In this document: one piece after another, positions 1,445 through 21,199 of the stretch
Numbering within the stretch: the stretch's first letter is position 1
Layout of the letters: each line of letters starts with the position of its first letter
Virus record (IMG/VR): IMGVR_UViG_2541047774_000002
DNA: 21,199 bases
Origin: a virus
Taxonomy: Duplodnaviria; Heunggongvirae; Uroviricota; Caudoviricetes
Reading direction: 5' to 3' (one strand)
The notes under the pieces: generated by a model
Told to the model about the DNA's origin: nothing
The model's input: the letters and a program-made list of their open reading frames with translations, nothing else
The model's database searches: none
Program-made: the position numbers and the translations under genes

Positions 1445-1461
1445 TTCAAACATCTCCCCAA

Positions 1462-3163: not shown

Positions 3164-3251
3164 TTGGCGTATTCGACATTTGACGCAAATAAAACTCTCG
3201 CCATTCGTTGCAGGAGGGGGTTATTGCGTCATTAGTACAGGATATTAATAA

Positions 3252-3886: not shown

Positions 3887-3898
3887 CGGAGACTGAAA

Positions 3899-5338: not shown

Positions 5339-5360
5339 GACGCGCCGAGCGTCTTTTTTT
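5339..5360 (+). terminator. possible rho-independent terminator (GACGC-gccga-GCGTC then TTTTTTT)
   Basis: 5-bp stem, 5-nt loop, 7 T; the stem is short so this is weak. Confidence 0.3.
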
Positions 5361-5562
5361 GTGCCGTTAGCCAGACTCACACTTTTTTCAGTGATGCGGT
5401 TATAATCCGCGTCGCTTGCAAAATTATGGTGGGCTGGACAGGGCAGCCGAAAGGCTGGCCGGTTTCCTTGTACGCCGGTACTGCGAACTCTGTTCAGTCC
5501 ACCACCAGCGAGTTTCGCAGCTCCGGTGGTGGGAAGAATTCCCAGTACAAGGAGGCTGCCAC

Positions 5563-5757
5563 ATGCTGGCTACTACCCCTACCCAAAAACCGCAATTTAT
5601 CTGGATTATCGCCGCAGTTCGCCGCGATTGCCCGACAATTACCGCCAAAATTCATCATATTGCTGCCGAGTCTGAACGCGATGCTCGCCGTTCTCTGGTG
5701 CGCGATCACGTCTGCTTTTTTGCTGGTCGTATCCGCATGGAGGTGGCACATGATTAA
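5563..5757 (+). CDS. small hypothetical protein (64 aa)
   Basis: ATG preceded by a near-consensus SD AAGGAGG at 5549-5555; first gene of a translationally coupled chain that runs to the primase; function unknown. Confidence 0.5.
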   Translation: MLATTPTQKPQFIWIIAAVRRDCPTITAKIHHIAAESERDARRSLVRDHVCFFAGRIRMEVAHD

Positions 5758-5968
5758 AACCTACGATGTGCATATGGATCCCCTCGAACGCACAAGCCAG
5801 ATCATCACACTGACAGAAGTGATTAATGACATTCTGGTGAGCAACTCTCCCTCACGAGACGAAAAACTGAAGGCGTTACTCGCGATATTGGATCTCGCCG
5901 TTCGTGACGTTCATTTCCTGCTGGAAGGTGGCGAAATGCCAGGAAAAACGGGGGCAACCAATGAATAA
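5750..5968 (+). CDS. hypothetical protein (72 aa)
   Basis: ATG overlaps the upstream stop (ATGATTAA); GGAGG upstream; this is the 3' segment of the 355-aa track ORF, whose upstream part I reject. Confidence 0.5.
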   Translation: MIKTYDVHMDPLERTSQIITLTEVINDILVSNSPSRDEKLKALLAILDLAVRDVHFLLEGGEMPGKTGATNE

Positions 5969-6155
5969 CTCAATTAATGCCCCTCGACTTACGTCCGCAC
6001 TTCAATTAATCGAGCAAGCAGCGGCTGTCCTGGTTGCTGTCAGTCTTTCGGCTGAAGAAATGGACGCTGCTGATGTCGTGGATGCGATTAAAGCGTGCTC
6101 ATCTTTGGTTAACGATGCTCGTGCAGAGCTGGTAATTCTTGGGGGTGAAAAATGA
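5961..6155 (+). CDS. hypothetical protein (64 aa)
   Basis: ATG overlapping the upstream stop (ATGAATAA); alternative start at 5904 in the track. Confidence 0.45.
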   Translation: MNNSINAPRLTSALQLIEQAAAVLVAVSLSAEEMDAADVVDAIKACSSLVNDARAELVILGGEK

Positions 6156-6415
6156 ATATCAACTTAATTTATCGTCATCCGTGTGAGCTGGAAATTGAAT
6201 CATTGCTGAGCCGTGAAGAGCCATATCCAGACACATTCACTCTTGCAGATCGCACGACTGAACGGCTTACCAGAGCGCGCACAGGTCTGGTTCATGTGAT
6301 GAATGAGATTCTTCCATCGGTGGGAGGGGAACAGGCGACAGTAATCACTAGCTGGCTACAAAAAGTTACCTCTCTGATAGATATCAGTTTAATCGATGCG
6401 GAGAGTGCGAAATGA
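6152..6415 (+). CDS. hypothetical protein (87 aa)
   Basis: ATGA start/stop overlap with the upstream gene; acidic protein. Confidence 0.55.
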   Translation: MNINLIYRHPCELEIESLLSREEPYPDTFTLADRTTERLTRARTGLVHVMNEILPSVGGEQATVITSWLQKVTSLIDISLIDAESAK

Positions 6416-6633
6416 CCAACATCCAGCTCATTGAAGCACAATGTCGCATCGAACAGGTTCAGACTGTTTTAGGGTTCTGGCTTGAAGGGGCCAGCCCCAG
6501 CAACAGAGACAAGTTAATGATTGGCGCGGTTATGTCACTGCTCAATGGCGTACCAGAAGCTATTCAGGAAGCAGACGAATTGTTGGGCAAATATGAGTTA
6601 CAGAATCATTCAGGCGAGGCGAAACATGAATAA
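6412..6633 (+). CDS. hypothetical protein (73 aa)
   Basis: ATGA overlap with the upstream gene. Confidence 0.55.
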   Translation: MTNIQLIEAQCRIEQVQTVLGFWLEGASPSNRDKLMIGAVMSLLNGVPEAIQEADELLGKYELQNHSGEAKHE

Positions 6634-7228
6634 TTTCTTAACTTTCCATGCAGAAGCAACGCCTGACGGCGTAAACATCATGTACCGCAGCAACGATGGA
6701 ATGACAGAACGCGTTGAGGCCGTCTCATATATTGATGCCGTAAATCGTCTGGATGCCGGGGATTATGACGATAAACCAGATGAAGGTATGTCAATACATC
6801 TCGCTATAGCCGATGGCGGCAACCAGGGATATTTCGATTACACATCACAGCATAACGTCATTATGTGGAGATGGCTGATCGCAACAGTATTCATGCTGGA
6901 AATGAGAGAGGAAAACGGCACTGTCAGCATCATTGATGATACTGGCAATCCTTCCGAAGTGGCTGTTTATTCCAACGGCATCGTCGCCATGCCGCTGTAT
7001 CCAGTAGCAGAGCGCCTCGCTATGGCAAACAACATTGAGGGCGCGATGATAGAACGTTTTGGCATCGAGTCTGGCACAGAACGCGCCATCATTTTCTACA
7101 GAGCCATGATGGATGTGGAACAAGGAGCACTGACTCCATTTGGTCGTGAAACGCTTGCTGAACTTCACAACAGCTTTATAGCTGAACTGAATGAAAACGG
7201 CATGCCAGCGGAACCAGTGACGCACTGA
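6626..7228 (+). CDS. hypothetical protein (200 aa)
   Basis: ATG at 6626 overlaps the upstream stop; the track's alternative start at 6521 is less likely because it would overlap the preceding gene by more than 100 nt. Confidence 0.55.
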   Translation: MNNFLTFHAEATPDGVNIMYRSNDGMTERVEAVSYIDAVNRLDAGDYDDKPDEGMSIHLAIADGGNQGYFDYTSQHNVIMWRWLIATVFMLEMREENGTVSIIDDTGNPSEVAVYSNGIVAMPLYPVAERLAMANNIEGAMIERFGIESGTERAIIFYRAMMDVEQGALTPFGRETLAELHNSFIAELNENGMPAEPVTH

Positions 7229-7238
7229 GGATGGAACC

Positions 7239-7580
7239 ATGATTACTAAAAATTTCCGACTGAATGCGCTGGCAAATAAGTATGCGTCGGCACTGTATAA
7301 CCACATTACCTCCACCAGCGGCGGGGACTATTTCATGGTTGATGCGGACGGCGAGGCCGTCCGTGTGGAAATCGTCAATGGAGTAAAAGGCGTTCGCAGC
7401 CTGATCGATAGCTACACACTAGCAACCATGAAAGTGTTCTACCCGCAGTGGGAAACCGTGGGGATCGAGCTTCTTGATCGTTGCGTCACTAAGGACGGAT
7501 TGACTGACGTTGGGCGCGAGATATGGCAAAGCATGGTTAATGACATGGGCGCAACTGTAGCGGGAGGTTCTCATGCGTGA
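7239..7580 (+). CDS. hypothetical protein (113 aa)
   Basis: ORF with GAGG about 8 nt upstream; same operon. Confidence 0.6.
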   Translation: MITKNFRLNALANKYASALYNHITSTSGGDYFMVDADGEAVRVEIVNGVKGVRSLIDSYTLATMKVFYPQWETVGIELLDRCVTKDGLTDVGREIWQSMVNDMGATVAGGSHA

Positions 7581-7944
7581 AAATGCAGAAATGGCGCTTA
7601 GCTCCGCAATCGGAGAGCAGGTGGCAAAGATTGCTGGTGCTGTGTGGATTCATAACCTTCATTCTACTGGTGAAGAGAAAATGGCAATTCAGACGCCAGA
7701 GGGACGCACCATTACTACATCTCTGAAGCCGTCAGATGTTTGTGATCTGATTTGCGCATTCATGTACCCAGCAATGAGGACTGCCCACGGCGATAAGTGG
7801 AAACTTGCGACAACCGCTGAATTTGATATGTGGCTAAACAATGATGGCATGCTGACTGATTACGGAATAACCAAGTGGCAGATGCTGGTTAGCCATATCG
7901 CAAACGCTATAGACCACGTGGGGTACGGTGATGCGAAACATTGA
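7573..7944 (+). CDS. hypothetical protein (123 aa)
   Basis: Overlaps both neighbours; same operon, immediately upstream of the primase. Confidence 0.6.
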   Translation: MRENAEMALSSAIGEQVAKIAGAVWIHNLHSTGEEKMAIQTPEGRTITTSLKPSDVCDLICAFMYPAMRTAHGDKWKLATTAEFDMWLNNDGMLTDYGITKWQMLVSHIANAIDHVGYGDAKH

Positions 7945-10687
7945 TCTTATCCGTCAGGTTATCAGTGCGTCTGAAAACAACTGGCCTCATGTGCTGGGCT
8001 GCCTGAACATAAATGTCCCTGACTCTCCGCGCCGTCATGCTCCCTGCCCTGCATGTGGGGGCAAAGATCGATTCCGGTTCGATGACAACGGGCGCGGTAG
8101 CTTCATCTGTAATCAGTGCGGCGCTGGTGATGGGCTGGATTTAATTAAACGCGTAAATAACTGCGACACAACAGAGGCGGCGCTTCTTGCCGCTGATGTT
8201 CTGGGTATTGATTACCGGACAACGGAAACACCAGAAGCCACCAGCCAGAAACGGGAACAACTGGAAACCGAGCGCCAGCGACGCGAACAGGAGCGCCTGA
8301 AAAGGGCAGAGAAGGATGAACAACAAAGACGGGATACGTTTTCCCGTCAGTTTGATGACATGCGCAGAAAGGCTGTAAACGGCAAATCTGATTATCTGGT
8401 TGCGAAAGGGGTAGGTGATTTTACATTCCCCGTGTTGCCCGATGGATCTCTGTTGCTGGCGCTGGTGGATAAATCCGGCGCAGTCACAGCAGCACAGACA
8501 ATTACCTCACATGGTGAAAAAAGACTCCTGACAGGTTCAGCAAAGCGGGGGGCATATCACGCCATAAACGCACCAGAAACAACACAGAGCATCTTAATCG
8601 CAGAAGGGCTGGCAACGGCATTATCTGCCCATTTAATTCGTCCAGAGGCGCTGACAGTGGCGGCGATTGATGCCGGGAACCTGTTATATGTCGCCCAGGT
8701 ACTGCGGGATAAATTTCCTTCAGCACAAATTATCATTGCTGCGGATAACGACCACAGCGAAGGAAGACAAAACACGGGGAGAATAGCAGCAGAAAAAGCA
8801 GCTTTATCTGTTTCTGGATGGGTGGCATTACCCCCGACAGATCACAAAGCAGACTGGAATGATTACCACCAAAAACACGGCATTAAATGCGCCACAGAAG
8901 CGTTCAATAAGTCAATGTACCAACCACAGGGTAATGGCGTGAAACAGGAGCCACAGACCATTGAGGGAAGCGATTTTAAGGTTATGGATACCGACCCACT
9001 GAAACCAAGAATAGAAAGCCGCGAGGATGGTATTTATTGGGTATCTCCGAGAGCTGACAGTCAGAGTGGAGAAATCATCAATAACGAAAGCTGGTTATGT
9101 TCTCCGTTAAGCGTTATCGGTACTGGCAGAGACGATAAAGACCAGTATCTCATTCTTCGCTGGCTGTCGTTTGGTTCTGAAACGCCGACAACCGCTGCCA
9201 TTCCACTGGCTGATATTGGTGAACGTGAAGGATGGCGCACACTTAAAGCTGGTGGGGTAAATGTCACGACCAAAAGCAGCCTCAGAGCAATACTGGCAGA
9301 CTGGCTACAACGCAGTGGCTCTCGTGAATTGTGGCGTGTTGCTCATGCCACTGGCTGGCAATGCGGAGCGTACATCATGCCTGATGGGGAAATCATCGGA
9401 ACACCTGAAAATCCTGTGCTGTTCAGCGGGAGAAGCTCAGCCGCAGCCGGATATACCGTCTCAGGGAGCGCGAAAAGCTGGCGTGATAACGTGGCGCGTC
9501 TGGCCTTTGGTAACTATTCAATGATGACCGGGATCGGCGCAGCACTGGCAGCGCCATTGATTGGGCTGGTGGGCGCTGACGGGTTCGGCATTCATTTCTA
9601 TGAGCAGTCGAGCGCAGGTAAGACCACCACGGCAAACGTGGCGAGCAGCTTATACGGCAACCCTGATTTACTGCGGCTGACGTGGTACGGAACCGCGCTG
9701 GGGCTGGCAAATGAAGCTGCCGCCCACAATGACGGACTAATGCCGCTTGATGAAGTTGGTCAGGGCGCTGATCCTGTCAGTGTTTCACAGTCTGCCTATG
9801 CGTTATTTAACGGTGTAGGGAAACTGCAAGGCGCTAAAGATGGTGGAAACCGGGATCTAAAACGCTGGCGTACAGTGGCAATCAGCACCGGAGAAATGGA
9901 TTTAGAAACATTTATCGCTACTTCCGGGCGAAAAACCAAAGCCGGGCAACTGGTGCGACTGCTGAATATTCCGTTGAGTAAAGCAGTACGCTTTCACGAT
10001 TACCAGAACGGAAAACAGCACGCAGACGCACTGAAAGACGCTTACCAGCATCACCACGGCGCAGCCGGGCGTGAGTGGATTAAATGGCTGACAGACCACC
10101 AGCAACAGGCAATTAAAACTGTTCGTGACTGCGAAAGCAGATGGAGAAGTCTGATCCCATCCGATTATGGTGAGCAGGTTCACCGTGTAGCCGCGCGATT
10201 TGCCATTCTGGAGGCCGCATTGCTGTTAGGCGAGGTTGTAACAGGCTGGGATGCTCAGACATGCCGTGATGCGATACAGCACAGCTATAACGCATGGTTG
10301 CGCGAGTTCGGCACAGGTAACAAAGAGCATCAGCAGATTATTGAACAAACGGAGGCATTTCTTAATGCCTATGGGCTTAGCCGTTTTGCACCATTTCCAT
10401 ACAGCCCGGCAGATTTGCCCATCAAAGATTTAGCCGGATACCGTCAGCGTGGAGAACATGACGAAAGCCCAATGATTTTCTACACATTCCCGGCCACATT
10501 TGAAAAGGAGATCGCATGTGGTTTCAACGCAAAACAGTTTGCTGAAGTGTTGAAAAAAGCCGGGATGCTAACCCCACCAAACAGCGGTCGTGGATACCAA
10601 AGAAAATCACCACGTATTCAGGGACGACAAATAAACGTTTATGTACTCAATTACCAGCCAGGAGATTATAACTCATCTGAAGAATGA
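7928..10687 (+). CDS. replicative primase-helicase (zinc-ribbon + Toprim + P-loop NTPase), P4-alpha/PICI-Pri-like
   Basis: 919 aa; N-terminal Cys4 motif CPACGG...CNQCG; Toprim-like acidic motif IIIAADNDHSEG; Walker A EQSSAGKTT and Walker-B-like GLMPLDEVGQ in the C-terminal half; followed directly by iterons. Confidence 0.9.
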   Translation: MMRNIDLIRQVISASENNWPHVLGCLNINVPDSPRRHAPCPACGGKDRFRFDDNGRGSFICNQCGAGDGLDLIKRVNNCDTTEAALLAADVLGIDYRTTETPEATSQKREQLETERQRREQERLKRAEKDEQQRRDTFSRQFDDMRRKAVNGKSDYLVAKGVGDFTFPVLPDGSLLLALVDKSGAVTAAQTITSHGEKRLLTGSAKRGAYHAINAPETTQSILIAEGLATALSAHLIRPEALTVAAIDAGNLLYVAQVLRDKFPSAQIIIAADNDHSEGRQNTGRIAAEKAALSVSGWVALPPTDHKADWNDYHQKHGIKCATEAFNKSMYQPQGNGVKQEPQTIEGSDFKVMDTDPLKPRIESREDGIYWVSPRADSQSGEIINNESWLCSPLSVIGTGRDDKDQYLILRWLSFGSETPTTAAIPLADIGEREGWRTLKAGGVNVTTKSSLRAILADWLQRSGSRELWRVAHATGWQCGAYIMPDGEIIGTPENPVLFSGRSSAAAGYTVSGSAKSWRDNVARLAFGNYSMMTGIGAALAAPLIGLVGADGFGIHFYEQSSAGKTTTANVASSLYGNPDLLRLTWYGTALGLANEAAAHNDGLMPLDEVGQGADPVSVSQSAYALFNGVGKLQGAKDGGNRDLKRWRTVAISTGEMDLETFIATSGRKTKAGQLVRLLNIPLSKAVRFHDYQNGKQHADALKDAYQHHHGAAGREWIKWLTDHQQQAIKTVRDCESRWRSLIPSDYGEQVHRVAARFAILEAALLLGEVVTGWDAQTCRDAIQHSYNAWLREFGTGNKEHQQIIEQTEAFLNAYGLSRFAPFPYSPADLPIKDLAGYRQRGEHDESPMIFYTFPATFEKEIACGFNAKQFAEVLKKAGMLTPPNSGRGYQRKSPRIQGRQINVYVLNYQPGDYNSSEE

Positions 10688-10712
10688 GCTTCTTCATGTG
10701 CGTAGAAAAGGT

Positions 10713-10823
10713 GTTGGTTCAGTTGGTTCAGTTGGTTCAATTTGTAAATAGTATTGTTTTATAAGGATTTTATTCTTTTTATTGAACCAACACTGAACCA
10801 ACAACACGGTATTTTGAACCAAC
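10713..10823. repeat. iteron cluster / putative replication origin: 3 tandem GTTGGTTCA (10713-10739), AT-rich spacer, 3 inverted TGAACCAAC (10783-10791, 10794-10802, 10815-10823)
   Basis: Repeats counted directly; iterons flanking an AT-rich core directly downstream of a primase-helicase gene is standard satellite/plasmid origin architecture. Confidence 0.6.
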
Positions 10824-10873
10824 ACAATGTGACTGAATTGATGCGCACAACACCTGGCTGGCATCAGAGAGTG

Positions 10874-10950
10874 TTTTACGAGACTTTCGTAAAATCCTGT
10901 GTACAAGGGCGTGACGTTTTTGAAAGTGGGCACTACGAAATTTTCGTAGT
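10874..10950. promoter_or_regulatory. two related palindromes: TTTTACGA-n5-TCGTAAAA (10874-10894) and perfect 19-bp ACTACGAAA-T-TTTCGTAGT (10932-10950); candidate operator pair
   Basis: Shared TACGA(A/G)A...TTTCGTA half-sites about 40 bp apart; neither is followed by a T-run, so they are more likely protein-binding sites than terminators. Confidence 0.35.
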
Positions 10951-11143
10951 TCAAAAAACAGCCTCTGAGAAGTTGTTATGCCTGTTCAGCAAACCATCCA
11001 CATAGCTGATCGCGAATCAAATTACCAATGGAGCCAGAAGCAAGGGCAGAACTGAAAAGCGCCTGCCGTGAAGAGTAATGCGACACCATAAATATAGTTT
11101 TTAGAGTCCATAAAAAACCTGTCAAAACCTGACACACAGAACG

Positions 11144-11177
11144 ATGCCACCAGCTACTGAGCGGTGGCATTTTTTTG
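11144..11177 (+). terminator. rho-independent terminator (ATGCCACC-loop-GGTGGCAT then TTTTTT)
   Basis: Perfect 8-bp stem, 11-nt loop, 6-7 T on the + strand; separates the replication module from the downstream operon. Confidence 0.6.
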
Positions 11178-11271
11178 TGCTATTTGTTTCATATTTTGCA
11201 ATTACGATGATGAATATTGCGATTTGTGAAACTATAATAACTGTTGTTTTATACAGTTCTAAGGGGGCGTT

Positions 11272-11433
11272 ATGGCTATTTCAGTAAAGCCGGTATTGAT
11301 AAGTGAGAAGCAAATGGAAGCGATAAAGAAAATTCAGGAAGAGCAGCGTAAAAAATCAGGAATTGGAGTAGCGCCAACTCTGCATGAAATTGCACGAGGG
11401 TTAATAGATAAGGCGCTGGCAGGCTGTATGTGA
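11272..11433 (+). CDS. small protein (53 aa), possible small DNA-binding regulator
   Basis: Not in the ORF track (under 60 aa). ATG 5 nt after AAGGGGG; translation read by hand: MAISVKPVLISEKQMEAIKKIQEEQRKKSGIGVAPTLHEIARGLIDKALAGCM; stop 16 nt before the next gene; sits right after an AT-rich promoter-like region. Confidence 0.4.
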   Translation: MAISVKPVLISEKQMEAIKKIQEEQRKKSGIGVAPTLHEIARGLIDKALAGCM

Positions 11434-11449
11434 AAATGGATGGCATCGC

Positions 11450-11911
11450 ATGGAACTAAAATTTATTGATAACCCTGTGCGATTACAGGCCTTTCTTAAC
11501 GAGCCAGGCAATACCGAAAATATTGTTGAGCCGGGGCACACGTACTACATCAAGCCTGATGCGGTATATCTCGGCATCTACGAAGGATTAGTGCTGGCTG
11601 GCGTTCATGAAGTGCGTAACTTCTGGCATAGCGTTGTTGAATGCCATGCGGTGTACGACCCCGGATTCCGTGGTGAATATGCACTGCAAGGGCATCGATT
11701 ATTCTGCAAATGGCTTCTCGAAAACTCACCATTCCTTAACAGCATCACTATGGTTCCTGACACCACGAAATATGGACGGGCAATTATCCGTTTGCTTGGC
11801 GCTACCCGTGTTGGTCACCTTGATGATGCTTATATCAGATGTGGTAAACCCGTCGGCGTAACGCTTTATCAGTTAACTCGGCAACAATATAAGGAATTCA
11901 GCGAATGTTAA
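11450..11911 (+). CDS. hypothetical protein (153 aa); possible accessory protein of an ejection-protein module (P22 gp14-like position)
   Basis: Normal globular composition; stop overlaps the start of the 699-aa gene (ATGTTAA); the positional assignment is inference only. Confidence 0.7.
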   Translation: MELKFIDNPVRLQAFLNEPGNTENIVEPGHTYYIKPDAVYLGIYEGLVLAGVHEVRNFWHSVVECHAVYDPGFRGEYALQGHRLFCKWLLENSPFLNSITMVPDTTKYGRAIIRLLGATRVGHLDDAYIRCGKPVGVTLYQLTRQQYKEFSEC

Positions 11912-14004
11912 TTACCCATATAGCTCATAAACATCTCAATCGTGCCGTATACGAAAAAGGCGGTGATGGTGGTGCCTCTAAAGCTCAGGCGAAGGCCCAG
12001 CAGCAGGCAATTGATTTGCAGCGCGAGCAGTGGAATACGGTGATGAATAATCTCAAGCCGTATGCAGAAGTCGGATTGCCTGCTTTACAACAACTGCAAG
12101 GACTGATGACTCTGGAAGGGCAGAATAAAGCCGCGAATGATTTCTTTGGTTCTGGTTTATATAAAACACAGGCAGATCAGGCCCGTTATCAGAACCTTGT
12201 CTCAGCAGAAGCTACCGGGGGGCTTGGCTCAACAGCTACCAGTAACCAGTTATCTTCCATTGCGCCCATGCTTTATAACAATTGGCTCAGTGGGCAAATG
12301 CAAAATTATGGAAACCTGCTAAATGTCGGGATGAATGCGGCATCAGGGCAGGCAACAGCAGGGCAAAACTACGCCAATAATACCGGGCAACTCTTGCAGG
12401 GGCTTGGCGCTATTCGTGCAGGTCAGGCGCAGCAGCCATCCAGTCTTGCGCGTGGTATTGGTGGGGCGGCATCAGGCGCTTTAGCGGGTGCGCAACTTGG
12501 TTCCGTTGTTCCGGGTATAGGTAATGTCGCCGGGGCTATTGGTGGTGGGCTTATTGGTCTTGTTGGGGGGGCTTGGATTCTAATGGCGACATGGCAACTT
12601 GGCGGGCTGCCTAGCATGGCACCGCAAAATGATAATGCTCCTCGTTCTTCCGTTCCTCAGCCTGTGCAGTATCAGCAGCACCCAAACGTAGGTTTAATGG
12701 CGCTACAGGGGCTAAGAGGCGTTGCTGAGATTAATCAGCAGGCACGTCAACAACAGCGTAAAGCAGAGTTTCAGAAAGCATATGCCGGGGCTTTTGAGTC
12801 TGGAGACAGAAACAAAATGCGCAGTCTTATTTCTGAGTATCCAGAAGAATTTGAAAGCGTTCAGAAAGGGATGGGCTTTATTGATGACGACCAGAGAAAT
12901 TCTATTGGTCATCTTGCGACTAGTGCTCAAATCGCATCTTCGCTCGGAACTGGGGCATTTGGAAAATTCATAGCAGATAACGAAGATGAAATGCGTCGCT
13001 TGGGAATTTCTCCTGAGTCTGTTGCCGAAATGCATGTTAATGATCCACAGGGATTCCAGCGGCTTGCTGGTAGTATGGCACTGTTTTCTCTCGGTCATGA
13101 GAAGTATTTCGATATCAAAGATCAAATGGAAGGTCGGGATATTGAGCGTGGCAAGTTGGCAGAGACAATCCGCAGCAATCAGGCTGGCGAAGCACTTCAG
13201 GCGAGAGGGCAGGATATTAGCCGAGCAAATGCGTTAACGTCAGCATATGCACCAACAGCAGCAATGCAGAATTACAATCAGTACGCTCAAATGTTAAAGG
13301 CGGATCCAGAGGGGGCGGCGGCATTTGCGGCAGCGGCTGGAATTAATACAAACGCCAAAAAATTAATGAGTGTTAGAGAAAACGATGATGGCACTGTCAC
13401 AAAATACTACACAGACGGAAGTGAAGAGCAGGGAAAACTAAACCAGCCAATATCTGGAGATGGGTTTCGTCCAATAGCTTTGCCAACAGCCCAAAAGATC
13501 ATGGAAAAGTCGCCAGAAGGGGCTAAAAAAGCTGCTGGATTTGCATACAGGGTTAGGGATGCTCTTGATTCAATAGATACACTGAAAGACCAGCTTAGCC
13601 CACAGCGAGTGGCGATCATTAATAATGCTTTGGGTAATGGGACGCTGGCTAACTTAACGCTCAGCCCAACAGAGCAGCAATACGTTGTTAATGCTAATGA
13701 CGCAATAATGGCAATACTCCGTCAGGAAACAGGGGCAGCTATCGCACCTGCTGAAATGTCAAAATATTATCAAATGTATTTCCCTCAGCCTGGCGACTCC
13801 ACAAAAACCATTGATACCAAGCGCCGGAAGATGGAAAACCAGTTCAATTCGCTGAAAGCTGCTTCTGGTCGAGCTTATGATGCTTTGCGGGTTATTTCAG
13901 CAGTTGACAGAGGAACTTCTTCTTCGTCGCAGACATTGCCGCAATCTGAGCAGGTATCACAGCCAGCAGCCAGCAGTAACTTTTCTTCACTATGGGGTGA
14001 TTAA
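11905..14004 (+). CDS. large low-complexity protein (699 aa); candidate phage ejection / internal-virion (DNA-transfer) protein
   Basis: N-terminal EKGGDGG followed by a Q/A-rich coiled-coil-like stretch; Q/N/G/A-rich low-complexity region; glycine-zipper hydrophobic segment GSVVPGIGNVAGAIGGGLIGLVGGAWILMATW; essentially no Cys; translationally coupled on both sides. Confidence 0.75.
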   Translation: MLITHIAHKHLNRAVYEKGGDGGASKAQAKAQQQAIDLQREQWNTVMNNLKPYAEVGLPALQQLQGLMTLEGQNKAANDFFGSGLYKTQADQARYQNLVSAEATGGLGSTATSNQLSSIAPMLYNNWLSGQMQNYGNLLNVGMNAASGQATAGQNYANNTGQLLQGLGAIRAGQAQQPSSLARGIGGAASGALAGAQLGSVVPGIGNVAGAIGGGLIGLVGGAWILMATWQLGGLPSMAPQNDNAPRSSVPQPVQYQQHPNVGLMALQGLRGVAEINQQARQQQRKAEFQKAYAGAFESGDRNKMRSLISEYPEEFESVQKGMGFIDDDQRNSIGHLATSAQIASSLGTGAFGKFIADNEDEMRRLGISPESVAEMHVNDPQGFQRLAGSMALFSLGHEKYFDIKDQMEGRDIERGKLAETIRSNQAGEALQARGQDISRANALTSAYAPTAAMQNYNQYAQMLKADPEGAAAFAAAAGINTNAKKLMSVRENDDGTVTKYYTDGSEEQGKLNQPISGDGFRPIALPTAQKIMEKSPEGAKKAAGFAYRVRDALDSIDTLKDQLSPQRVAIINNALGNGTLANLTLSPTEQQYVVNANDAIMAILRQETGAAIAPAEMSKYYQMYFPQPGDSTKTIDTKRRKMENQFNSLKAASGRAYDALRVISAVDRGTSSSSQTLPQSEQVSQPAASSNFSSLWGD

Positions 14005-16109
14005 TGGCTAAAGCATGGAAAGATGTTATCGCCTCTCCACAGTATCAGGCGTTAGCACCAGAACAAAAAGCGCAGGCTCAGGAGCAATACTTCAATGAAG
14101 TCGTTGCCCCGCAAGCCGGAGAAAGTGTAGAGCAGGCTAAGCAGGCTTTTTATGCTGCCTATCCACTACCATCAACGAATGAAATAGACCGATCCCAATC
14201 AGCAACTCAAAATATTCAACATACATCATCTGATAATTCTCTTGCGTCAGGGTATGCAAAGTTAGCTACTCAGCAAAGAGAGGGGCTTGAGCGTTCAGCA
14301 GAACAGGGAGCCAGTCTTGGGGCTGCGATGCGCGATGCTATAACAGGCGAAAGCCGAATGACTCCAGAGATGGAGAGACTGCAAAATGTCACCTCTGCCC
14401 CAGAATTGAACTCACTAAGCATGGATGCCCTAAAGGCTGGATGGTCTCAACTTTTCGGCTCTGACGCGTCTCAGGAAAAGATTCTTCAGGGAATGGGGGC
14501 GACATTAAGGCAGGATGAGAAGGGGAATACTATCGTTTCTCTGCCATCAGGTGATTATGCCCTGAACAAGCCGGGTTTATCACCGCAAGACCTGACTTCG
14601 TTTCTTGCTAATGCGTTGGCGTTTACACCAGTGGGCAGGGCTGGAACGGTGCTTGGTGCCATAGGAAAATCAGCAGCTACAGATTTAGCACTACAGGGAG
14701 CCACCAGCCTTGCTGGTGGAGAAGATATTGATCCGTTACAAACGGTAATTTCTGCTGGCATTGGTGGTATTGGTAAGGGGCTGGAAAATACAGCGAGTGC
14801 GGTTTCGAGGGCTGTTCGTGGTGATATGTCGCCTGAAGCAAAGGCTGCTGTCGACTTTGCATCGGAAAGAAATCTGCCGTTAATGACCAGTGACATGCTG
14901 AAAGATAAAACCTTTATGCAGAGTCAGGCTCAGACATTAGGCGAAAGAGTTCCTTTTTTTGGAACCGGTAAGAATCGGCTGAATCAACAACAAGCACGAG
15001 AAAATTTAGTCAGAACATTTAGCGATGGTCTGGGTGGCATTTCTGATAAACAGCTTTATGAATCTGCGACTAAAGGGCAACAAAAATTCATTGAGGCAGC
15101 AGGAAAGCGATATAACCGCATAATTGACGCTATGGGGGATACCCCTGTCGATCTCTCAAACACGGTAAAAGCTATCGACAATCAGATTGCCGTGTTAAGC
15201 CGCCCGGGCAAATCTCAGGATAGAGCCGCGGTAAAAGTCTTGCAGCAATTTAAAGACGATATCACCAGCGGACCAAATGACCTGCGTCTGGCGAGGGAAA
15301 ACAGAACCGATCTTCGAAAGCGATTTATGGCGTCATCTGACACTGTTGATAAAGATACGCTCCAGAAAGCCAGCGATATTATCTACAAGGCATATACGGC
15401 GGATATGAAAAAAGCCGTAGCCAAAAATCTTGGAGCAGACGAAGCCATTAATATGGCAAGGGTTGATCGCTCATGGTCTAAATTCAATGACATGATGGGA
15501 AGAACGCGCGTTCAAAAGGCAATAGCCAGCGGCAAGGCCACGCCTGAGGATGTAACAAAACTCGTTTTTAGCCAAAGCCCATCAGAACGTTCTCAGCTTT
15601 ACAGGCTTCTGGATGACAATGGTAGGCAAAACGCACGAGCAGCCATAGTTCAGAATGCTGTAGATAAGGCGACTGATCCGTCTGGAAATATCAGTGTTGA
15701 GAAGTTTATTAATGCGTTACACCGGAACAGGAAGCAATCAGCAACTTTCTTTAAAGGCGTACATGGAAAGGAACTGGACGGCGTTATTAAATACCTCAAC
15801 GATACAAGACACGCGGCAAAAGCGAACGTTCAAAACTTAAATGGTCAGCAGCTTTATGGATTGTTAGTTGGTGGTGGCATCATAAACGCAGCAGTATTAG
15901 CGGGGATGCTAAAAACGGCTGCGTTTGTTGTTCCTGCTGCTGGTGCCGTAGGCGGAGCAGCGAAGGCATACGAAAGCCCTGTTATACGAAATGCCTTGTT
16001 ACGTCTGGCAAATACGCCAAAAGGTAGCACAGCATATGACAGAGCGATCAGTACGGTCACACAATCGCTCACCAGAGTCGCACAGGCATCACAAAAAGAA
16101 GCTCAATAA
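14004..16109 (+). CDS. large low-complexity protein (701 aa); candidate phage ejection / internal-virion protein
   Basis: TAATG overlap with the upstream gene; A/Q/K/S/G-rich, largely helical-looking; C-terminal Gly/Ala-rich hydrophobic segment LLVGGGIINAAVLAGMLKTAAFVVPAAGAVGGAAKA; no Cys; followed by a terminator. Confidence 0.75.
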   Translation: MAKAWKDVIASPQYQALAPEQKAQAQEQYFNEVVAPQAGESVEQAKQAFYAAYPLPSTNEIDRSQSATQNIQHTSSDNSLASGYAKLATQQREGLERSAEQGASLGAAMRDAITGESRMTPEMERLQNVTSAPELNSLSMDALKAGWSQLFGSDASQEKILQGMGATLRQDEKGNTIVSLPSGDYALNKPGLSPQDLTSFLANALAFTPVGRAGTVLGAIGKSAATDLALQGATSLAGGEDIDPLQTVISAGIGGIGKGLENTASAVSRAVRGDMSPEAKAAVDFASERNLPLMTSDMLKDKTFMQSQAQTLGERVPFFGTGKNRLNQQQARENLVRTFSDGLGGISDKQLYESATKGQQKFIEAAGKRYNRIIDAMGDTPVDLSNTVKAIDNQIAVLSRPGKSQDRAAVKVLQQFKDDITSGPNDLRLARENRTDLRKRFMASSDTVDKDTLQKASDIIYKAYTADMKKAVAKNLGADEAINMARVDRSWSKFNDMMGRTRVQKAIASGKATPEDVTKLVFSQSPSERSQLYRLLDDNGRQNARAAIVQNAVDKATDPSGNISVEKFINALHRNRKQSATFFKGVHGKELDGVIKYLNDTRHAAKANVQNLNGQQLYGLLVGGGIINAAVLAGMLKTAAFVVPAAGAVGGAAKAYESPVIRNALLRLANTPKGSTAYDRAISTVTQSLTRVAQASQKEAQ

Positions 16110-16113
16110 CTGG

Positions 16114-16137
16114 TTAGCCATGGATGGCTAATTTTTG
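16114..16137 (+). terminator. rho-independent terminator (TTAGCC-atggat-GGCTAA then TTTTTG) in the 18-bp gap between convergent genes
   Basis: 6-8 bp stem followed by a T-run on the + strand; the stop codon of the convergent minus-strand gene lies inside the hairpin. Confidence 0.5.
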
Positions 16138-16487
16138 TTCTTTGCTCTCATCCATAGGTAAAGAAGGGAAAGAACAAGACAAAAAACAGAGAATAGATAA
16201 CCTACCTCATATGGTGCGCCAAAAAAATTAGCTATTGATACGGGCAAAAAAGCTGAGGCGATCAAAATTGAAAGGCAAAAAATAAGCCCAGTAATATAGT
16301 TTATTAAATTCTTAAATGAGAAACGTTTTGCTTGATTTACGGTCTTAACGAACGATCGCTTAACGACGGATAAAAGCAAATAGATGGCGACAGTTGCTAA
16401 TGCCCCTTTCCACCAGTCTGGATATAGTTTTGCGACAATCAGACCAAGGAAAACCGTAAGCGTAAACTGACCGCCGTATGTAGCCAT
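16128..16487 (-). CDS. small integral membrane protein (3-4 predicted TM helices); 5' end interrupted by the IS66-family insertion
   Basis: Hydrophobic segments ALATVAIYLLLSVV, ITGLIFCLSILIASAFLPV, VGYLFSVFCLVLSLLYLWM; the first 11 codons of the track ORF (16456-16487) lie inside the IS left inverted repeat, so the native gene continues beyond the IS (see findings). Confidence 0.5.
   Translation of the reverse strand: MATYGGQFTLTVFLGLIVAKLYPDWWKGALATVAIYLLLSVVKRSFVKTVNQAKRFSFKNLINYITGLIFCLSILIASAFLPVSIANFFGAPYEVGYLFSVFCLVLSLLYLWMRAKNKN
16448..16455. repeat. target-site duplication GGAAAACC (left copy)
   Basis: 8 bp immediately outside the IS left end, identical to 18988-18995. Confidence 0.8.
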
Positions 16488-16540
16488 CAGACGAGAATTG
16501 GTAACTTAGACGCCCATCTGATATAGACGGACATCTAAGT

Positions 16541-16966
16541 ATGGAATTACAGGACTGGCGAAAAGAACCTCGTAAAAACTATTCGAATGAATTCAAACTT
16601 CGTATGGTGGAACTGGCATCACAACCTGGAGCTTGTGTTGCACAGATTGCACGTGAAAATGGCGTCAATGATAATGTTATTTTCAAATGGCTCAGGCTCT
16701 GGCAGAACGAAGGGCGTGTTTCGCGGCGTCTTCCGGTAACGACCTCTTCTGACACTGGCGTTGAATTATTACCTGTAGAAATAACGCCGGATGAGCAGAA
16801 AGAACCTGTGGCGGCCATTGCGCCGTCTTTATCCACTTCCACTCAGACCAGAGTCAGTGCCAGTTCCTGCAAGGTGGAATTCCGTCACGGTAACATGACG
16901 CTGGAAAATCCATCGCCAGAGCTGCTCACAGTGTTGATCCGTGAACTGACCGGGAGGGGAAGATGA
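16541..16966 (+). CDS. IS66-family accessory protein TnpA (orf1)
   Basis: 141 aa; N-terminal HTH-like region; stop overlaps the tnpB start (ATGA). Confidence 0.85.
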   Translation: MELQDWRKEPRKNYSNEFKLRMVELASQPGACVAQIARENGVNDNVIFKWLRLWQNEGRVSRRLPVTTSSDTGVELLPVEITPDEQKEPVAAIAPSLSTSTQTRVSASSCKVEFRHGNMTLENPSPELLTVLIRELTGRGR

Positions 16967-17313
16967 TCTCACTCCCATCAGGTACCCGTATCTGGCTCGT
17001 TGCCGGCGTTACCGATATGCGTAAATCCTTCAACGGACTGGGAGAACAGGTACAACATGTGCTGAATGATAATCCCTTCTCCGGTCACCTGTTTATCTTC
17101 CGTGGCCGACGGGGTGACACCGTCAAAATTCTTTGGGCTGATGCTGATGGTCTGTGCCTGTTCACCAAACGCCTGGAGGAAGGCCAGTTTATCTGGCCTG
17201 CGGTACGTGACGGCAAGGTATCCATTACCCGCTCGCAACTGGCAATGCTCCTCGATAAGCTGGACTGGCGTCAGCCAAAAACATCCAGCCGTAACTCACT
17301 GACAATGTTGTAA
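16963..17313 (+). CDS. IS66-family Orf2 / TnpB
   Basis: 116 aa; sequence recognised as the IS66 Orf2 family (LPSGTRIWLVAGVTDMRKSFNGL...); size and position typical. Confidence 0.9.
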   Translation: MISLPSGTRIWLVAGVTDMRKSFNGLGEQVQHVLNDNPFSGHLFIFRGRRGDTVKILWADADGLCLFTKRLEEGQFIWPAVRDGKVSITRSQLAMLLDKLDWRQPKTSSRNSLTML

Positions 17314-17343
17314 AAAACTCCTGACCGCATTATAAAAACGGTC

Positions 17344-18957
17344 ATGAGTCAGAAATACCTCATTCGCATCGCAGAGCTGGAAAGGTTGCTCTCTGAGCAG
17401 GCTGAAGCCCTCCGTCAGAAAGACCAGCAACTGAGTCTGGTTGAAGAGACGGAAGCCTTCCTGCGCTCTGCACTGACACGTGCCGAAGAAAAGATCGAAG
17501 AAGATGAACGGGAAATAGAACATCTGCGGGCTCAGATAGAAAAACTGCGCCGGATGCTGTTCGGTACCCGTTCTGAAAAACTGCGTCGTGAAGTTGAACT
17601 GGCTGAGGCTCTGCTGAAACAACGTGAACAGGACAGCGATCGTTACAGTGGGCGGGAAGACGATCCTCAGGTTCCCCGCCAGTTGCGACAGTCGCGCCAT
17701 CGTCGTCCGTTACCGGCACACCTTCCCCGTGAAATACACCGCCTGGAGCCAGAAGAAAGCTGTTGCCCGGAGTGTGGCGGTGAGCTGGATTATCTGGGGG
17801 AAGTCAGCGCTGAACAGCTGGAACTGGTGAGCAGTGCCCTGAAAGTGATCCGCACAGAACGGGTAAAAAAAGCCTGTACAAAATGTGACTGTATTGTTGA
17901 AGCACCGGCGCCGTCCCGCCCGATAGAGCGTGGTATCGCGGGCCCCGGATTACTTGCCCGCGTGTTAACGGGAAAATACTGCGAACATCTGCCACTGTAT
18001 CGTCAGAGTGAAATCTTTGCCCGCCAGGGTGTCGAACTGAGCCGGGCCTTACTCTCCAACTGGGTTGACGCGTACTGCCAGTTAATGACACCGGTGAATG
18101 ATGCCCTGTACCGTTATGTAATGAACACCCGCAAGGTTCACACTGATGACACACCGGTAAAGGTACTGGCACCGGGTCAGAAAAAGGCGAAAACAGGGCG
18201 TATCTGGACGTATGTCCGGGATGATCGCAATGTGGGTTCGTCATCTCCTCCAGCGGTCTGGTTCGCGTACTCGCCGAACCGGCAGGGGAAACACCCGGAG
18301 CAACACCTCCGCCCCTTCCGGGGTATCCTGCAGGCGGATGCGTTCACAGGTTACGACAGGTTGTTCAGTGCAGAACGTGAAGGTGGTGCACTGACAGAAG
18401 TTGCGTGCTGGGCCCATGCCCGGCGAAAAATCCACGATGTATACATCAGCAGCAAAAGTGCGACGGCAGAAGAAGCCCTGAAGCGAATCAGTGAACTGTA
18501 CGCCATCGAGGATGAAATACGGGGATTACCGGAGTCAGAGCGTCTTGCCGTCAGGCAGCAGCGAAGCAAAGTGTTACTGACGTCGCTGCATGAATGGATG
18601 GTGGAGAAGAATGGTACGCTGTCGAAAAAATCCAGACTGGGCGAAGCGTTCAGCTATGTACTGAATCAGTGGGATGCCCTCTGTTATTACAGTGATGACG
18701 GTCTGGCGGAGGCGGATAATAATGCTGCGGAAAGAGCGCTTCGTGCAGTCTGTCTCGGAAAGAAAAACTTTATGTTCTTTGGCAGCGATCACGGCGGCGA
18801 GCGTGGAGCACTGTTGTACGGGCTGATCGGCACCTGCCGTCTGAACGGTATCGATCCGGAAGCGTATCTGCGCCATATCCTGAGCGTACTGCCGGAATGG
18901 CCTTCCAACCGAGTTGACGAACTCCTGCCATGGAACGTAGTACTCACCAATAAATAA
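17344..18957 (+). CDS. IS66-family transposase TnpC
   Basis: 537 aa; N-terminal coiled-coil/leucine-zipper region; zinc-finger CCPECGG...CTKCD; C-terminal DDE-type catalytic region; stop abuts the right inverted repeat. Confidence 0.9.
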   Translation: MSQKYLIRIAELERLLSEQAEALRQKDQQLSLVEETEAFLRSALTRAEEKIEEDEREIEHLRAQIEKLRRMLFGTRSEKLRREVELAEALLKQREQDSDRYSGREDDPQVPRQLRQSRHRRPLPAHLPREIHRLEPEESCCPECGGELDYLGEVSAEQLELVSSALKVIRTERVKKACTKCDCIVEAPAPSRPIERGIAGPGLLARVLTGKYCEHLPLYRQSEIFARQGVELSRALLSNWVDAYCQLMTPVNDALYRYVMNTRKVHTDDTPVKVLAPGQKKAKTGRIWTYVRDDRNVGSSSPPAVWFAYSPNRQGKHPEQHLRPFRGILQADAFTGYDRLFSAEREGGALTEVACWAHARRKIHDVYISSKSATAEEALKRISELYAIEDEIRGLPESERLAVRQQRSKVLLTSLHEWMVEKNGTLSKKSRLGEAFSYVLNQWDALCYYSDDGLAEADNNAAERALRAVCLGKKNFMFFGSDHGGERGALLYGLIGTCRLNGIDPEAYLRHILSVLPEWPSNRVDELLPWNVVLTNK

Positions 18958-18987
18958 GCGTCAATACGGTGCTCCGTTGACGCTTAC

Positions 18988-18995
18988 GGAAAACC
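18988..18995. repeat. target-site duplication GGAAAACC (right copy)
   Basis: 8 bp immediately outside the IS right end, identical to 16448-16455. Confidence 0.8.
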
Positions 18996-19037
18996 ATGAT
19001 GACAGCCTGAGCATTCACACCAACCCTCCCTTTAGCT

Positions 19038-19418
19038 TTGTTTAGAATGGCAATCATCATATATCCAAGACATGGCATTTGGTACATAGCTTGGGTCGGG
19101 ATTTCAAATCCGATCCCCGTTGATGGGGCCGTTACAGTACGCGCATATCCGCTTTATGTGAAACAGGAAGATTTTTCTGATATCACTGCCACAGCAAAAC
19201 ACCAATTTCGAGACAAGTACGCGCGCGAGGGGTATCAGTTGCAAAAAATTTTGCAACTACGTCCGACCAGTATGCACACGATGGCGGGGGGATACCATAA
19301 AACTGTTCTCTACATGAGACAGAGTGGTGGTGATGTGTTGATTATCGACGTATATGCGCACAGGACGCGCTATGACGATGTTTTATGCGGGTACACCAAT
19401 CACATGTATCTGGTGTGA
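19038..19418 (+). CDS. questionable hypothetical ORF (126 aa)
   Basis: Track ORF only; no clear SD; its 5' part overlaps the reconstructed upstream region of the IS-interrupted membrane gene on the opposite strand; may be a gene fragment or non-coding. Confidence 0.25.
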   Translation: MFRMAIIIYPRHGIWYIAWVGISNPIPVDGAVTVRAYPLYVKQEDFSDITATAKHQFRDKYAREGYQLQKILQLRPTSMHTMAGGYHKTVLYMRQSGGDVLIIDVYAHRTRYDDVLCGYTNHMYLV

Positions 19419-20051
19419 TAAATCGCGTTACATGACCTCTCATGTTGTACTGGTGGTTATCACGACGTTCTGAATCTGGCCTTTGCCTGGTATTTTGCGA
19501 CAAGTACGCGCGCGTAGCATCGAAATAATCGGATGGCGTATGCTGCTGGTAATATGAAGACCGATAGCATTAACCGTAAGGAGAAAGACTTCTCGATAAC
19601 GGCAAGGGGGCTGAATTGCGAGGCGAGATTAAGCAACTGTCTTGAACGTAAAAATCATGGAGCAACATGATGGTACGATTCATTCCATTCTTCGTTCTTT
19701 CTGAGCATTGCGTTCAGGCTTAGTCAAAATTAGTGTTGCGAGCGGACCTATTAGTAATTGTTGGTGCGATGCGTCTGTTATGGATTGTTATGGTTGTGGC
19801 AGGCCTGATTAATATCCAGTATGACCACCAGCTATGAGAGGCCACCTCAGTGGTTCGCAGTTGCAGGTTTGCACTCAGGTTCGCAGGGTTTTGGCTACTT
19901 TCACGTGCGAACCTGCAGAATTGCAAAGGACAACTAAGTCCTCTGGTCAACTCCCGGTTTATGAGCGACACAGTCCGCCTGGCGCATCGTTTTCGTCGAG
20001 CGCGCCCATCAGCTTGTCCATGGACTATCCACCACTCGATATTAAAGCTAA

Positions 20052-20237
20052 TCATTGGTTGCCAGCCCGCGAATCAAGTTTGTTCTGGATCCAAGCTTCA
20101 ACCTCCTCAAGCGACCATCTAGCTGATCTACCAATTTTAACTGGCTGTGGAAACGTGCCCGTCTTAACCCATGAGTAGATTGCCGTTTTCTTGAAGCCCG
20201 TTCTGAGCATGACTTCGCTTAATTTGATAAGGCGCAT
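20052..20237 (-). CDS. alpA: AlpA-family HTH regulator / excisionase-like (second copy, opposite strand)
   Basis: 61 aa; IKLSEVMLRTGFKKTAIYSWVKTGTFPQPVKIGRSARWSLEEVEAWI matches the AlpA pattern; no integrase or primase adjacent, so it looks like a remnant of a second element. Confidence 0.75.
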   Translation of the reverse strand: MRLIKLSEVMLRTGFKKTAIYSWVKTGTFPQPVKIGRSARWSLEEVEAWIQNKLDSRAGNQ

Positions 20238-20487
20238 AGAGGCTCCTCTGCTTTAGATTAAGCATAGTGACAATCTGGCTTTGGGTGGTATCCAAAAGCG
20301 AGGTATCCATGTTGGTATCCACCAAAACGCTGTTTACCAAAAAGTTACCACCGGAACAGGACATTTTGAGCTGTAACTTAACACATAGCATATGGAGTTC
20401 ACGCATAGACTTCACGCACAACGGCTCTGGCCAGTGAAGAATCACCCTGGCTGGCAATATAATGCCGATCACCATCAGAGGGGAATC

Positions 20488-20680
20488 CATGACACCACGA
20501 GAAATCGAGCTGCTGACCATTGCCAAGCTGGAGCATGGCGGCCACCAGCTCAGCCCGGCAGAACTGCGGGAATTAAGGCGCCAGCTGGCAGAGGGCCCTG
20601 TAATAGCCAGGCGGTACCGCGAAATGATGACCAGCCCCGCATATCGCTGGAGCAAACCAGCGCCGCTCCGTGCGCGGTGA
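20488..20680 (+). CDS. small hypothetical protein (63 aa, Arg-rich)
   Basis: In-frame ATG inside the track ORF 20462-20680 with GAGGGG about 8 nt upstream; function unknown. Confidence 0.4.
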
Positions 20681-20754
20681 GCAGCACCTAACCAGCACTA
20701 GACAAGCCCTGTGCTGGTGGATGTCCCTCATAATTAGCGGTTTTTAAACGGCGT

Positions 20755-20875
20755 GTTGGTTCACGGCCTCTTTTTGTTGGTTCAAAAATGGGGTGTGTTG
20801 GTTCACTTTTTGCGAATAATTCTTTTAAAAACAATACTCTTTACAAATTGAACCAACTGAACCAACTGAACCAAC
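20755..20875. repeat. second iteron cluster, inverted relative to 10713-10823: 3 spaced GTTGGTTCA (20755-20763, 20776-20784, 20797-20805), AT-rich spacer, 3 tandem TGAACCAAC (20849-20875)
   Basis: Repeats counted directly; 20841-20885 is nearly the exact reverse complement of 10701-10745. Confidence 0.6.
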
Positions 20876-20911
20876 ACCTTTTTGCTTATCTATATAGTCT
20901 GAGAGGCAGAA

Positions 20912-21199
20912 ATGATAAGGGACAGGAAAGCTGAAGATCTGGAGTCAAAAGGGCTATACCGGAGAGCTGCCGCACGATGGGCAGAAGTCATGATGCTGGC
21001 AGATGGCGATAAAGAACGTGAACATGCAGCAAACAGACGCTCTGAATGTATCCGTAAGGCGGCACGCCAACCAGCAACTACAGACAGATTCGGAGATTTA
21101 AGACAGGCAGTTAAGCGAACTCATTCGGCTCTTGGTATGGATGAGGAAGCGAGAGGGTACTTCAGGCGTTATCGCGATAAAGATTGCCAGAGACAGTAA
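20912..21199 (+). CDS. PerC-like small transcriptional regulator (tentative)
   Basis: 95 aa ending at the window edge with a TAA stop; N-terminus MIRDRKAEDLESKGLYRRAAARWAEVM resembles PerC-family proteins of enterobacterial prophages; assignment from memory. Confidence 0.5.
   Translation: MIRDRKAEDLESKGLYRRAAARWAEVMMLADGDKEREHAANRRSECIRKAARQPATTDRFGDLRQAVKRTHSALGMDEEARGYFRRYRDKDCQRQ

Follow-up and report, generated by a model that had tools for sequence, protein, structure and literature searches.

A predicted four-helix membrane protein in the sieA position of a P22-type ejection module on a putative EcCIMP1-like satellite

Introduction

What role might a small membrane protein play when its gene lies, in opposite orientation, directly behind a set of phage DNA-ejection genes? 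The question is raised by a 21,199-nucleotide stretch of viral DNA (IMG/VR record IMGVR_UViG_2541047774_000002), the whole of which is here called the window. In it, a 701-aa gene with its stop at 16109 is followed, after 18 bp, by a convergent minus-strand open reading frame (ORF) at 16128-16487. A preliminary description had noted this arrangement and proposed that, if the upstream module encodes ejection (E) proteins, the small gene takes the position of sieA in P22 and could specify a prophage-encoded exclusion factor.

SieA of P22 blocks the entry of DNA from superinfecting phages. Three types of SieA (A, B and C) have been described (Leavitt et al. 2024, PMC10883804), and mutations that escape SieA lie in the C-terminal parts of gp16 and gp20 (PMC10883804). 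It is not yet understood how ejection proteins that differ so widely are recognised by SieA (PMC10883804). Here, the site behind gene 16 is called the slot, and the small gene that lies there in the window the slot gene.

The host element and its ejection module

The window begins with proA (1-1254), the tRNA-Thr gene thrW (1369-1444) and an integrase gene (1610-2824), and continues through an AntA-type antirepressor, Ash, a TOPRIM/DUF927 primase (7928-10687), the P22-type ejection module, the slot ORF and an insertion sequence (IS). On the right side lie an AlpA-type gene (20052-20237, minus strand) and PerC (from 20912). An att core, TCCTATTATC, is found in tRNA-Thr at 1428-1437. By blastn, identity to the EcCIMP1 element of E. 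coli MP1 is 99.2% over 608-12743 of the window and 98.4% over 19093-20995, and the two elements share the integrase at tRNA-Thr, the att core, AntA, Ash, primase, DUF2824, gp7, alpA_1 and PerC over about 14 kb. The integrase at tRNA-Thr, the att core, AlpA, the primase and PerC, along with the absence of capsid, tail and lysis genes, are the features of EcCIMP1-like PICIs. Judged by this gene content and by its 98-99% identity to EcCIMP1, the host element is classed as an EcCIMP1-like PICI satellite at thrW and not as the prophage that had been assumed. The island (1369-21199) encodes a full P22-type ejection set (gp14-like, gp7, gp20 and gp16), but capsid, tail and lysis genes are absent from it.

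The E-protein character of the upstream module, left conditional in the preliminary description, is borne out. The DUF2824 (P22 gp14-like), gp7 and gp20 genes were recognised through Pfam, and the 701-aa protein through PHROG 770 and by tblastn against P22 gene 16 (E about 7e-50); P22 gp16 is only 30% identical to it (Table 1). At about 12565-12571, alignment to an otherwise identical locus (L002) reveals a run of seven G residues where such loci have six. Because this extra base shifts the end of gp7 into the gp20 frame, gp7 and gp20 read as a single 699-aa ORF (11905-14004). The difference is due either to a true frameshift, which would inactivate or fuse the genes, or to an error in sequencing.

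The PICI EcCIMP1, which the P22-like phage Kapi1 mobilises (Pick et al. 2025, PMC11773190), adds to the superinfection immunity of Kapi1 lysogens through a mechanism that is unexplained, and its authors report none of the known defence systems in it (PMC11773190). The window copy differs from EcCIMP1 in that a gp20-gp16-slot cassette has been exchanged as a unit, and it has ISEc23 and the gp7 frameshift in addition. EcCIMP1 of MP1 encodes instead a 906-aa gp16 with a transglycosylase domain and lacks the four-transmembrane (4-TM) slot gene; its slot (L015 4632-5330) holds a co-directional gene for a 232-aa lipoprotein with the lipobox LLAGC. Since the MP1 slot gene is a different one, the published immunity phenotype cannot be credited to the 4-TM protein, and this attribution was rejected. 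By analogy of position, the 232-aa lipoprotein would be the obvious candidate for the EcCIMP1 superinfection immunity against Kapi1.

Anatomy of the interrupted gene

The slot ORF of the window is not an intact gene. The minus-strand ORF of 119 aa is chimeric, with an IS-derived start joined to a genuine gene body, and the native gene is complement(16128..16455 + 18996..19018), which encodes 116 aa from a GTG start behind the ribosome-binding site GGGAGGG. The ORF noted in the preliminary description thus does exist, but it does not encode the native product. Between the two parts of the gene lies ISEc23, whose termini read GTAAGCG...CGCTTAC and which cuts the gene after codon 8. The insertion is flanked by two copies of GGAAAACC, of which uninterrupted loci have one only.

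Supporting this reconstruction, 16128..16455 is 100% identical to uninterrupted E. coli copies and matches WP_000560496.1 once the over-extended N-terminus of that entry is removed. RefSeq annotates WP_000560496.1 with 129 aa for the uninterrupted copies (loci L001 and L002). The native product is taken to be 116 aa, and not 129, because all homologues start with MN(A/G)Q, nearly all behind a strong (A)GGAGG. In a megablast comparison with 5,426 complete E. coli genomes, the 100% identity stops at 16455, the remainder of the query matching IS copies elsewhere; the ISEc23 insertion at this site is absent from all 5,426.

Ahead of the chimeric ORF there is no Shine-Dalgarno sequence, and a scan of the upstream minus strand gave no promoter-like site. 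Upstream of the native start, a stricter consensus promoter scan found nothing, and the hexamer picked up by a relaxed scan is a weak promoter candidate only. As ISEc23 severs the promoter, ribosome-binding site and codons 1-8 from the body of the gene, the slot gene is most probably silent here, and the copy in the window is probably inactive.

The hairpin that had been described as a terminator shared by the two convergent genes is present in the gap between them. A U-run follows it directly on the plus strand, which gives it the look of a terminator for the gp16 operon. The minus-strand U-run is displaced, and the idea of a shared terminator is therefore only partly supported. A plus-strand ORF upstream of the slot gene (19038-19418, 126 aa) was rejected as a gene: RefSeq has no annotation for it, and comparison with a locus 94-98% identical gave two indels and substitutions spread evenly across codon positions.

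Table 1. Positions of the slot gene, its interruption and the neighbouring ejection module in the window
Feature	Position	Strand	Basis
DUF2824 protein (P22 gp14-like), first ejection-module gene	11450..11911	+	Pfam
gp7 and gp20 ejection genes as a single ORF	11905..14004	+	Pfam P22_gp7, Inj_translocase
gp16-type ejection (DNA transfer) protein, 701 aa	14004..16109	+	PHROG 770
Hairpin, 9 bp, between the convergent genes	16112..16133	+	spans the gap, overlaps the slot-gene stop codon
Slot gene, 3' part: codons 9-116 and stop	16128..16455	-	translation, family alignment
Target-site duplication, left copy, 8 bp, GGAAAACC	16448..16455	.	junction reading
ISEc23 (IS66 family; tnpA, tnpB, tnpC), 2,532 bp	16456..18987	+	100% identical to annotated ISEc23 copies
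IS-derived start of the chimeric 119-aa ORF: first 32 nt, 11 codons MATYGGQFTLT	16456..16487	-	junctions, translation
Target-site duplication, right copy, 8 bp, GGAAAACC	18988..18995	.	junction reading
Slot gene, 5' part: codons 1-8 MNAQAVIM, GTG at 19018-19016	18996..19018	-	IS-junction sequence
Shine-Dalgarno GGGAGGG, 5 nt ahead of GTG	19024..19030	-	sequence reading
Candidate -10 hexamer TATGAT, 37 nt upstream of the start, without a good -35	19056..19061	-	relaxed scan
Swapped cassette: most of gp20, gp16, slot gene and 75 bp upstream	12744..19092	.	blastn vs MP1

A small family of genuine genes

Outside the window, the gene occurs in 229 of the 5,426 complete E. coli genomes, always on the chromosome, and is uninterrupted in 227 of them. 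Its dN/dS of 0.12-0.38 indicates purifying selection. The start MN[A/G]Q is conserved in all family members, and an (A)GGAGG motif precedes it in six of seven family loci (L010 being the exception) as well as in the alternative L006 allele described below. Conservation, the shared start and Shine-Dalgarno sequence and the dN/dS values establish that the slot gene is a genuine coding gene and not a chance ORF.

The family is nonetheless tiny and confined to Enterobacterales. An exhaustive HMMER profile search of 1.84 billion representative proteins returned seven clusters only, and a second profile search, of 5.8 billion proteins, added no members. Those found come from E. coli, Salmonella, Edwardsiella, Yersinia and gut metagenomes, and they keep the same length and architecture at identities as low as about 37%. 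Among 50,697 phage records, tblastn with the slot protein gave no match, nor did blastn of phage records with the slot region of the E. coli S88 prophage. With a GC content of 38%, against 46-51% in its flanks and neighbours, the gene is AT-rich and moron-like.

In public assemblies, no fewer than six distinct forms of the gene that are truncated or chimeric were noticed (proteins P0010, P0014 and P0016-P0019), some of which recur in dozens of sequences. Although part of them may be artefacts of assembly, these forms suggest that the gene has been inactivated repeatedly, and such natural variants suggest that it is dispensable.

The moron-like composition and independent orientation would also suit a lysogenic-conversion or host-physiology membrane protein, such as a small transporter subunit or an envelope modifier. 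The slot holds lipoproteins and secreted proteins in other elements, and host-directed cargo such as PerC is carried by these PICIs (PMC11773190). On the other side, the slot protein matches no GtrA, transporter or housekeeping family (Pfam GtrA was not detected at E<=1, and no gtrB or gtrC adjoins the gene, as would be expected of a GtrA-like flippase), and the family is found only in the gp16-side slot, nowhere else among the 1.8 billion representatives. A conversion or host-physiology role is thus quite unlikely.

The predicted protein

The 116-aa slot protein has four hydrophobic helices by hydropathy, at the upper end of the three to four expected from the preliminary description. The same four appear in an AlphaFold model at residues 3-18, 23-52, 55-85 and 90-115. 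This model is of modest quality (pLDDT 64); a first one, with a pLDDT of 53, was unusable. Hydropathy and charge distribution together predict a positive-inside pattern, in which both termini and a basic loop, KRSFVKTVNQAKRFSFK, would be cytoplasmic. The two predicted periplasmic turns that join the helices, PDWWKG and GAPYEVG, are very short. The residues K-L-Y-P that close helix 1 are among those invariant in the family, and the short, basic C-terminus takes the family form ...LLYLW(x)R(x)KNKN.

A small, multi-pass protein with a short basic C-terminus could in principle be a holin, an antiholin or another lysis protein. A Foldseek search of the model against BFVD found nothing below E=0.3, and holins are among its weak, non-significant structural neighbours; Pfam Phage_holin_3_6 gave E=0.98, and holin-family matches were non-significant throughout. 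Genomic context argues against a lysis role. No endolysin or spanin gene adjoins the slot gene, the PICI is devoid of lysis genes, and none lies near the slot in the prophages. The slot is far from the side of the structural genes, where a lysis cassette would be expected: in the HS1 prophage, the holin, lysozyme and lysis genes are about 15 kb from the slot that holds SieA type B. A dual-start arrangement of the holin kind (Met1/Met8) was considered and rejected, since Met8 is not conserved in the family. A function in lysis is accordingly extremely improbable.

The sieA slot and its occupants

Whether the slot gene truly corresponds in position to sieA depends on the layout of P22 itself. 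There, sieA lies on the minus strand, convergent to gene 16 and 23 bp after it, which settles the orientation about which the preliminary description had been doubtful; sieA type B of the HS1 prophage has the same geometry. The slot gene follows this pattern closely. In every one of the nine loci examined outside E. coli, and in those inspected within E. coli, it lies convergent to one gp16 subtype and 17-23 bp after it, and the gp16 proteins beside family members are 60-94% identical to that of the window. Moreover, two complete P22-like prophages, one in E. coli S88 (at argW) and one in Yersinia enterocolitica, carry it between gene 16 and the tailspike gene (the gene 9 homologue), in convergent orientation to gene 16. 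Both prophages carry portal, scaffold, coat, gp4, gp10, gp7, gp20 and gp16, and in the S88 prophage the immI region is also located between gene 16 and the tailspike. The sieA position is thus indeed the one occupied by this family. In the loci inspected, the slot was held either by the 4-TM gene or by sieA, never by both.

Other phages fill the slot differently. Phage N7, with the same gp16 subtype as the family, has a 1-TM protein there; Brookers and Gally each have a convergent lipoprotein; and in Sf6, whose gp16 is more distant, the slot is empty. Because N7 combines the same gp16 subtype with another slot gene, the coupling between gp16 and the slot gene is not obligatory, and it may be simple physical linkage.

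A 2.27-kb block, from gp16 to just upstream of the slot-gene start, is 93.5% identical at the nucleotide level between the PICI and the S88 prophage. This block common to phage and PICI starts at about gp16 codon 77, and the gp7 and gp20 proteins of the two elements are only about 55% identical. On these sequence comparisons, the E-protein cassette is regarded as a mosaic that has been exchanged with P22-like prophages.

A third allele (P0022, L006 4505-4945) was also observed. Its upstream DNA is 94% identical and its first 21 or so codons are shared, through LGLIVAKLYP; after these, the L006 allele (P0021, P0022) continues with an unrelated 4-TM body and lies beside an unrelated 705-aa protein. 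The mosaic joint falls within the coding sequence. A different body beside a different 705-aa neighbour indicates that the slot gene travels with gp16.

These patterns bear on the idea that the slot protein serves the element's own ejection module, either by shielding the membrane of the producing cell from its own gp16 or by assisting the insertion of E-proteins as particles of the element enter a cell in which it is already present. Such a service is in keeping with gp16 (from about codon 77) and the slot gene forming one mosaic block common to phage and PICI, with the swapping of gp20, gp16 and the slot gene as a unit, and with the alternative allele that has a different body beside a wholly different 705-aa neighbour. 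However, the convergent orientation, the separate Shine-Dalgarno sequence and the intervening terminator speak for a gene that is regulated apart from the late operon. N7, whose gp16 is of the same subtype, and Sf6, whose gp16 is more distant, function without the slot gene, and the gene is frequently truncated in nature. Service to the element's own module is, in consequence, decidedly improbable.

Relation to SieA and other membrane proteins

Does occupation of the same position reflect common ancestry with SieA? The comparisons made give no sign of it. BLASTP of the slot protein gave non-significant E-values against P22 SieA (0.93) and HS1 type B (4.2), and hhalign of the slot family gave probabilities of 1.9% against SieA type A and 0.1% against types A and B together. 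The Pfam set that was scanned does not hold the SieA (PF26849) and gp16 models, and SieA was judged instead through precomputed Pfam assignments, in which PF26849 falls on SieA homologues and on no member of the slot family, and through our own profile comparisons. The conserved C-terminal cytoplasmic motif of SieA, FxRYPxEAxxFNK (PMC10883804), is visible in the SieA alignment and absent from the slot family. Homology to SieA, which the preliminary description had put forward as a check, thus failed to appear, and on these searches the slot protein has no detectable homologue in SieA types A or B.

A short local resemblance was seen between residues 52-70 of the slot protein (RFSFKNLINYITGLIF) and residues 67-85 of P22 SieA (KFSPERFENRITDALGLI), at the entry from loop to helix. 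It recurs in BLASTP and in two hhalign runs but is never significant, and since these runs are not independent it was discounted.

The likeness to SieA is one of arrangement. As with P22 SieA, the gene is convergent, about 20 bp after gene 16 and ahead of the immI/tailspike region, and it encodes a small, predicted multi-pass inner-membrane protein with its own translation signals. In contrast to SieA (164-212 aa), the slot protein has 116 aa, without the large charged cytoplasmic loop and the C-terminal motif, and it is also carried on PICI satellites.

The same silence was met in other collections. The intact slot protein matched nothing significantly in Pfam, PHROGs, PADLOC or NCBIfam, and a PADLOC-DB v2 scan returned 0 families at E<=1. 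The homologies that would have spoken against an exclusion role in the eyes of the preliminary description, to a holin, a housekeeping protein or an unrelated membrane family, are thus not significant in any of these four collections. Several small inner-membrane proteins of phages and prophages, such as T4 Imm and HK97 gp15, act at genome translocation. Blockers of this type differ from the slot protein in phage group and genome position, and the PHROG scan, which should cover Imm/HK97 gp15-type families, showed no similarity to it.

A possible block to DNA entry

Which function, then, fits a SieA-like position without SieA-like sequence? The surroundings of the slot look like an accessory or defence hotspot. 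Abi_2, Fic, M78-peptidase and YafO-type genes occur in the nearby variable region of related elements, and Abi_2 genes lie just past the slot gene in related PICIs at yicC-dinD and in Edwardsiella. The slot protein could accordingly be another membrane-acting defence protein or toxin, for example a RexB- or SieB-like depolarising abortive effector, or one directed at phages that are not P22-like, and would then not block the E-protein conduit. This would agree with a small multi-pass membrane protein of moron-like GC content, encoded at the edge of such a variable region and dissimilar to SieA. Set against it are the lack of any PADLOC or PHROG match to a known Abi or Rex component and the lack of a conserved partner gene adjoining the slot gene. 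As gp16 is the sole conserved neighbour, the context points to the DNA-entry apparatus and not to general abortive infection. A defence or toxin function of this broader kind is fairly unlikely.

The reading we prefer, tentatively and as a possibility somewhat short of an even chance, is that the slot protein would be a functional analogue of SieA, by position and context. The slot gene forms part of the P22-type ejection-protein module, convergent to gene 16 in the sieA slot, and P22-like prophages and EcCIMP1-like PICI satellites exchange it along with one gp16 subtype. Produced under its own signals in lysogens or in satellite carriers, the protein would be seated in the inner membrane, where it would hinder the gp20/gp16 DNA-delivery conduit of incoming P22-like phages. 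We infer this from the slot position, the orientation, the nature of the other occupants and the structure of the cassette. The geometry is that of P22 sieA, and elsewhere the slot holds SieA or other envelope proteins. In addition, the swapped cassette spans gp16 and gp20, the proteins hit by SieA-escape mutations (PMC10883804). Against the SieA-like reading stand the lack of SieA homology and of a consensus promoter, the existence of N7 without the gene, the natural truncations, the absence of the slot gene from the characterised EcCIMP1 and the lack of a Pfam, PHROG, PADLOC or NCBIfam match.

A wider proposal, which we regard as possible but doubtful, is that the slot family would add a fourth class to the inner-membrane blockers of DNA entry, one without sequence relationship to SieA, travelling in a matched cassette with gp16 (and the C-terminal part of gp20) and common to P22-like prophages and their PICIs. 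If this were true, satellites could exclude helper-type phages at the step of the ejection conduit while carrying their own E-protein set.

The significance of the locus lies in a second, unrelated and much smaller membrane protein in the sieA slot, one that is physically coupled to a single gp16 type and is found on phages as well as on their satellites. Such a protein would provide a compact comparative system for learning which portion of the gp16/gp20 conduit is the target at the inner membrane. Its position also suggests that exclusion factors of the cell envelope are generally concentrated in the slot between gene 16 and gene 9. Were the gene to have no phage phenotype, it would simply be an IS-inactivated hypothetical membrane moron.

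Other features of the element

Three further observations concern the element and its integration site. Rfam matches above the gathering score were found for isrK (5282-5359, plus strand, 69 bits) and for the C4 antisense RNA (5422-5509, plus strand, 81 bits). The two matches fall within the 355-aa 'Ash' ORF (4901-5968), and a Pfam Ash domain is assigned to the same nucleotides. This overlap suggests a P1/P7-type c4-icd-ant immunity arrangement in a PICI, and it makes the annotation of an Ash protein doubtful.

Further right, a perfect 10-bp inverted repeat (AGTTGCAAAA-AA-TTTTGCAACT), which could serve as an operator or as a terminator, is located at 19237-19258. The conserved stretch around it, between the slot gene and alpA_1, spans about 1 kb (19058-20051) and is unannotated.

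At thrW of E. coli HS (L022, 43838 onward), the P22-like prophage HS1, with its SieA of type B, is followed by a second integrase gene. A helper-type prophage and another element may be arranged there in tandem at one att site.
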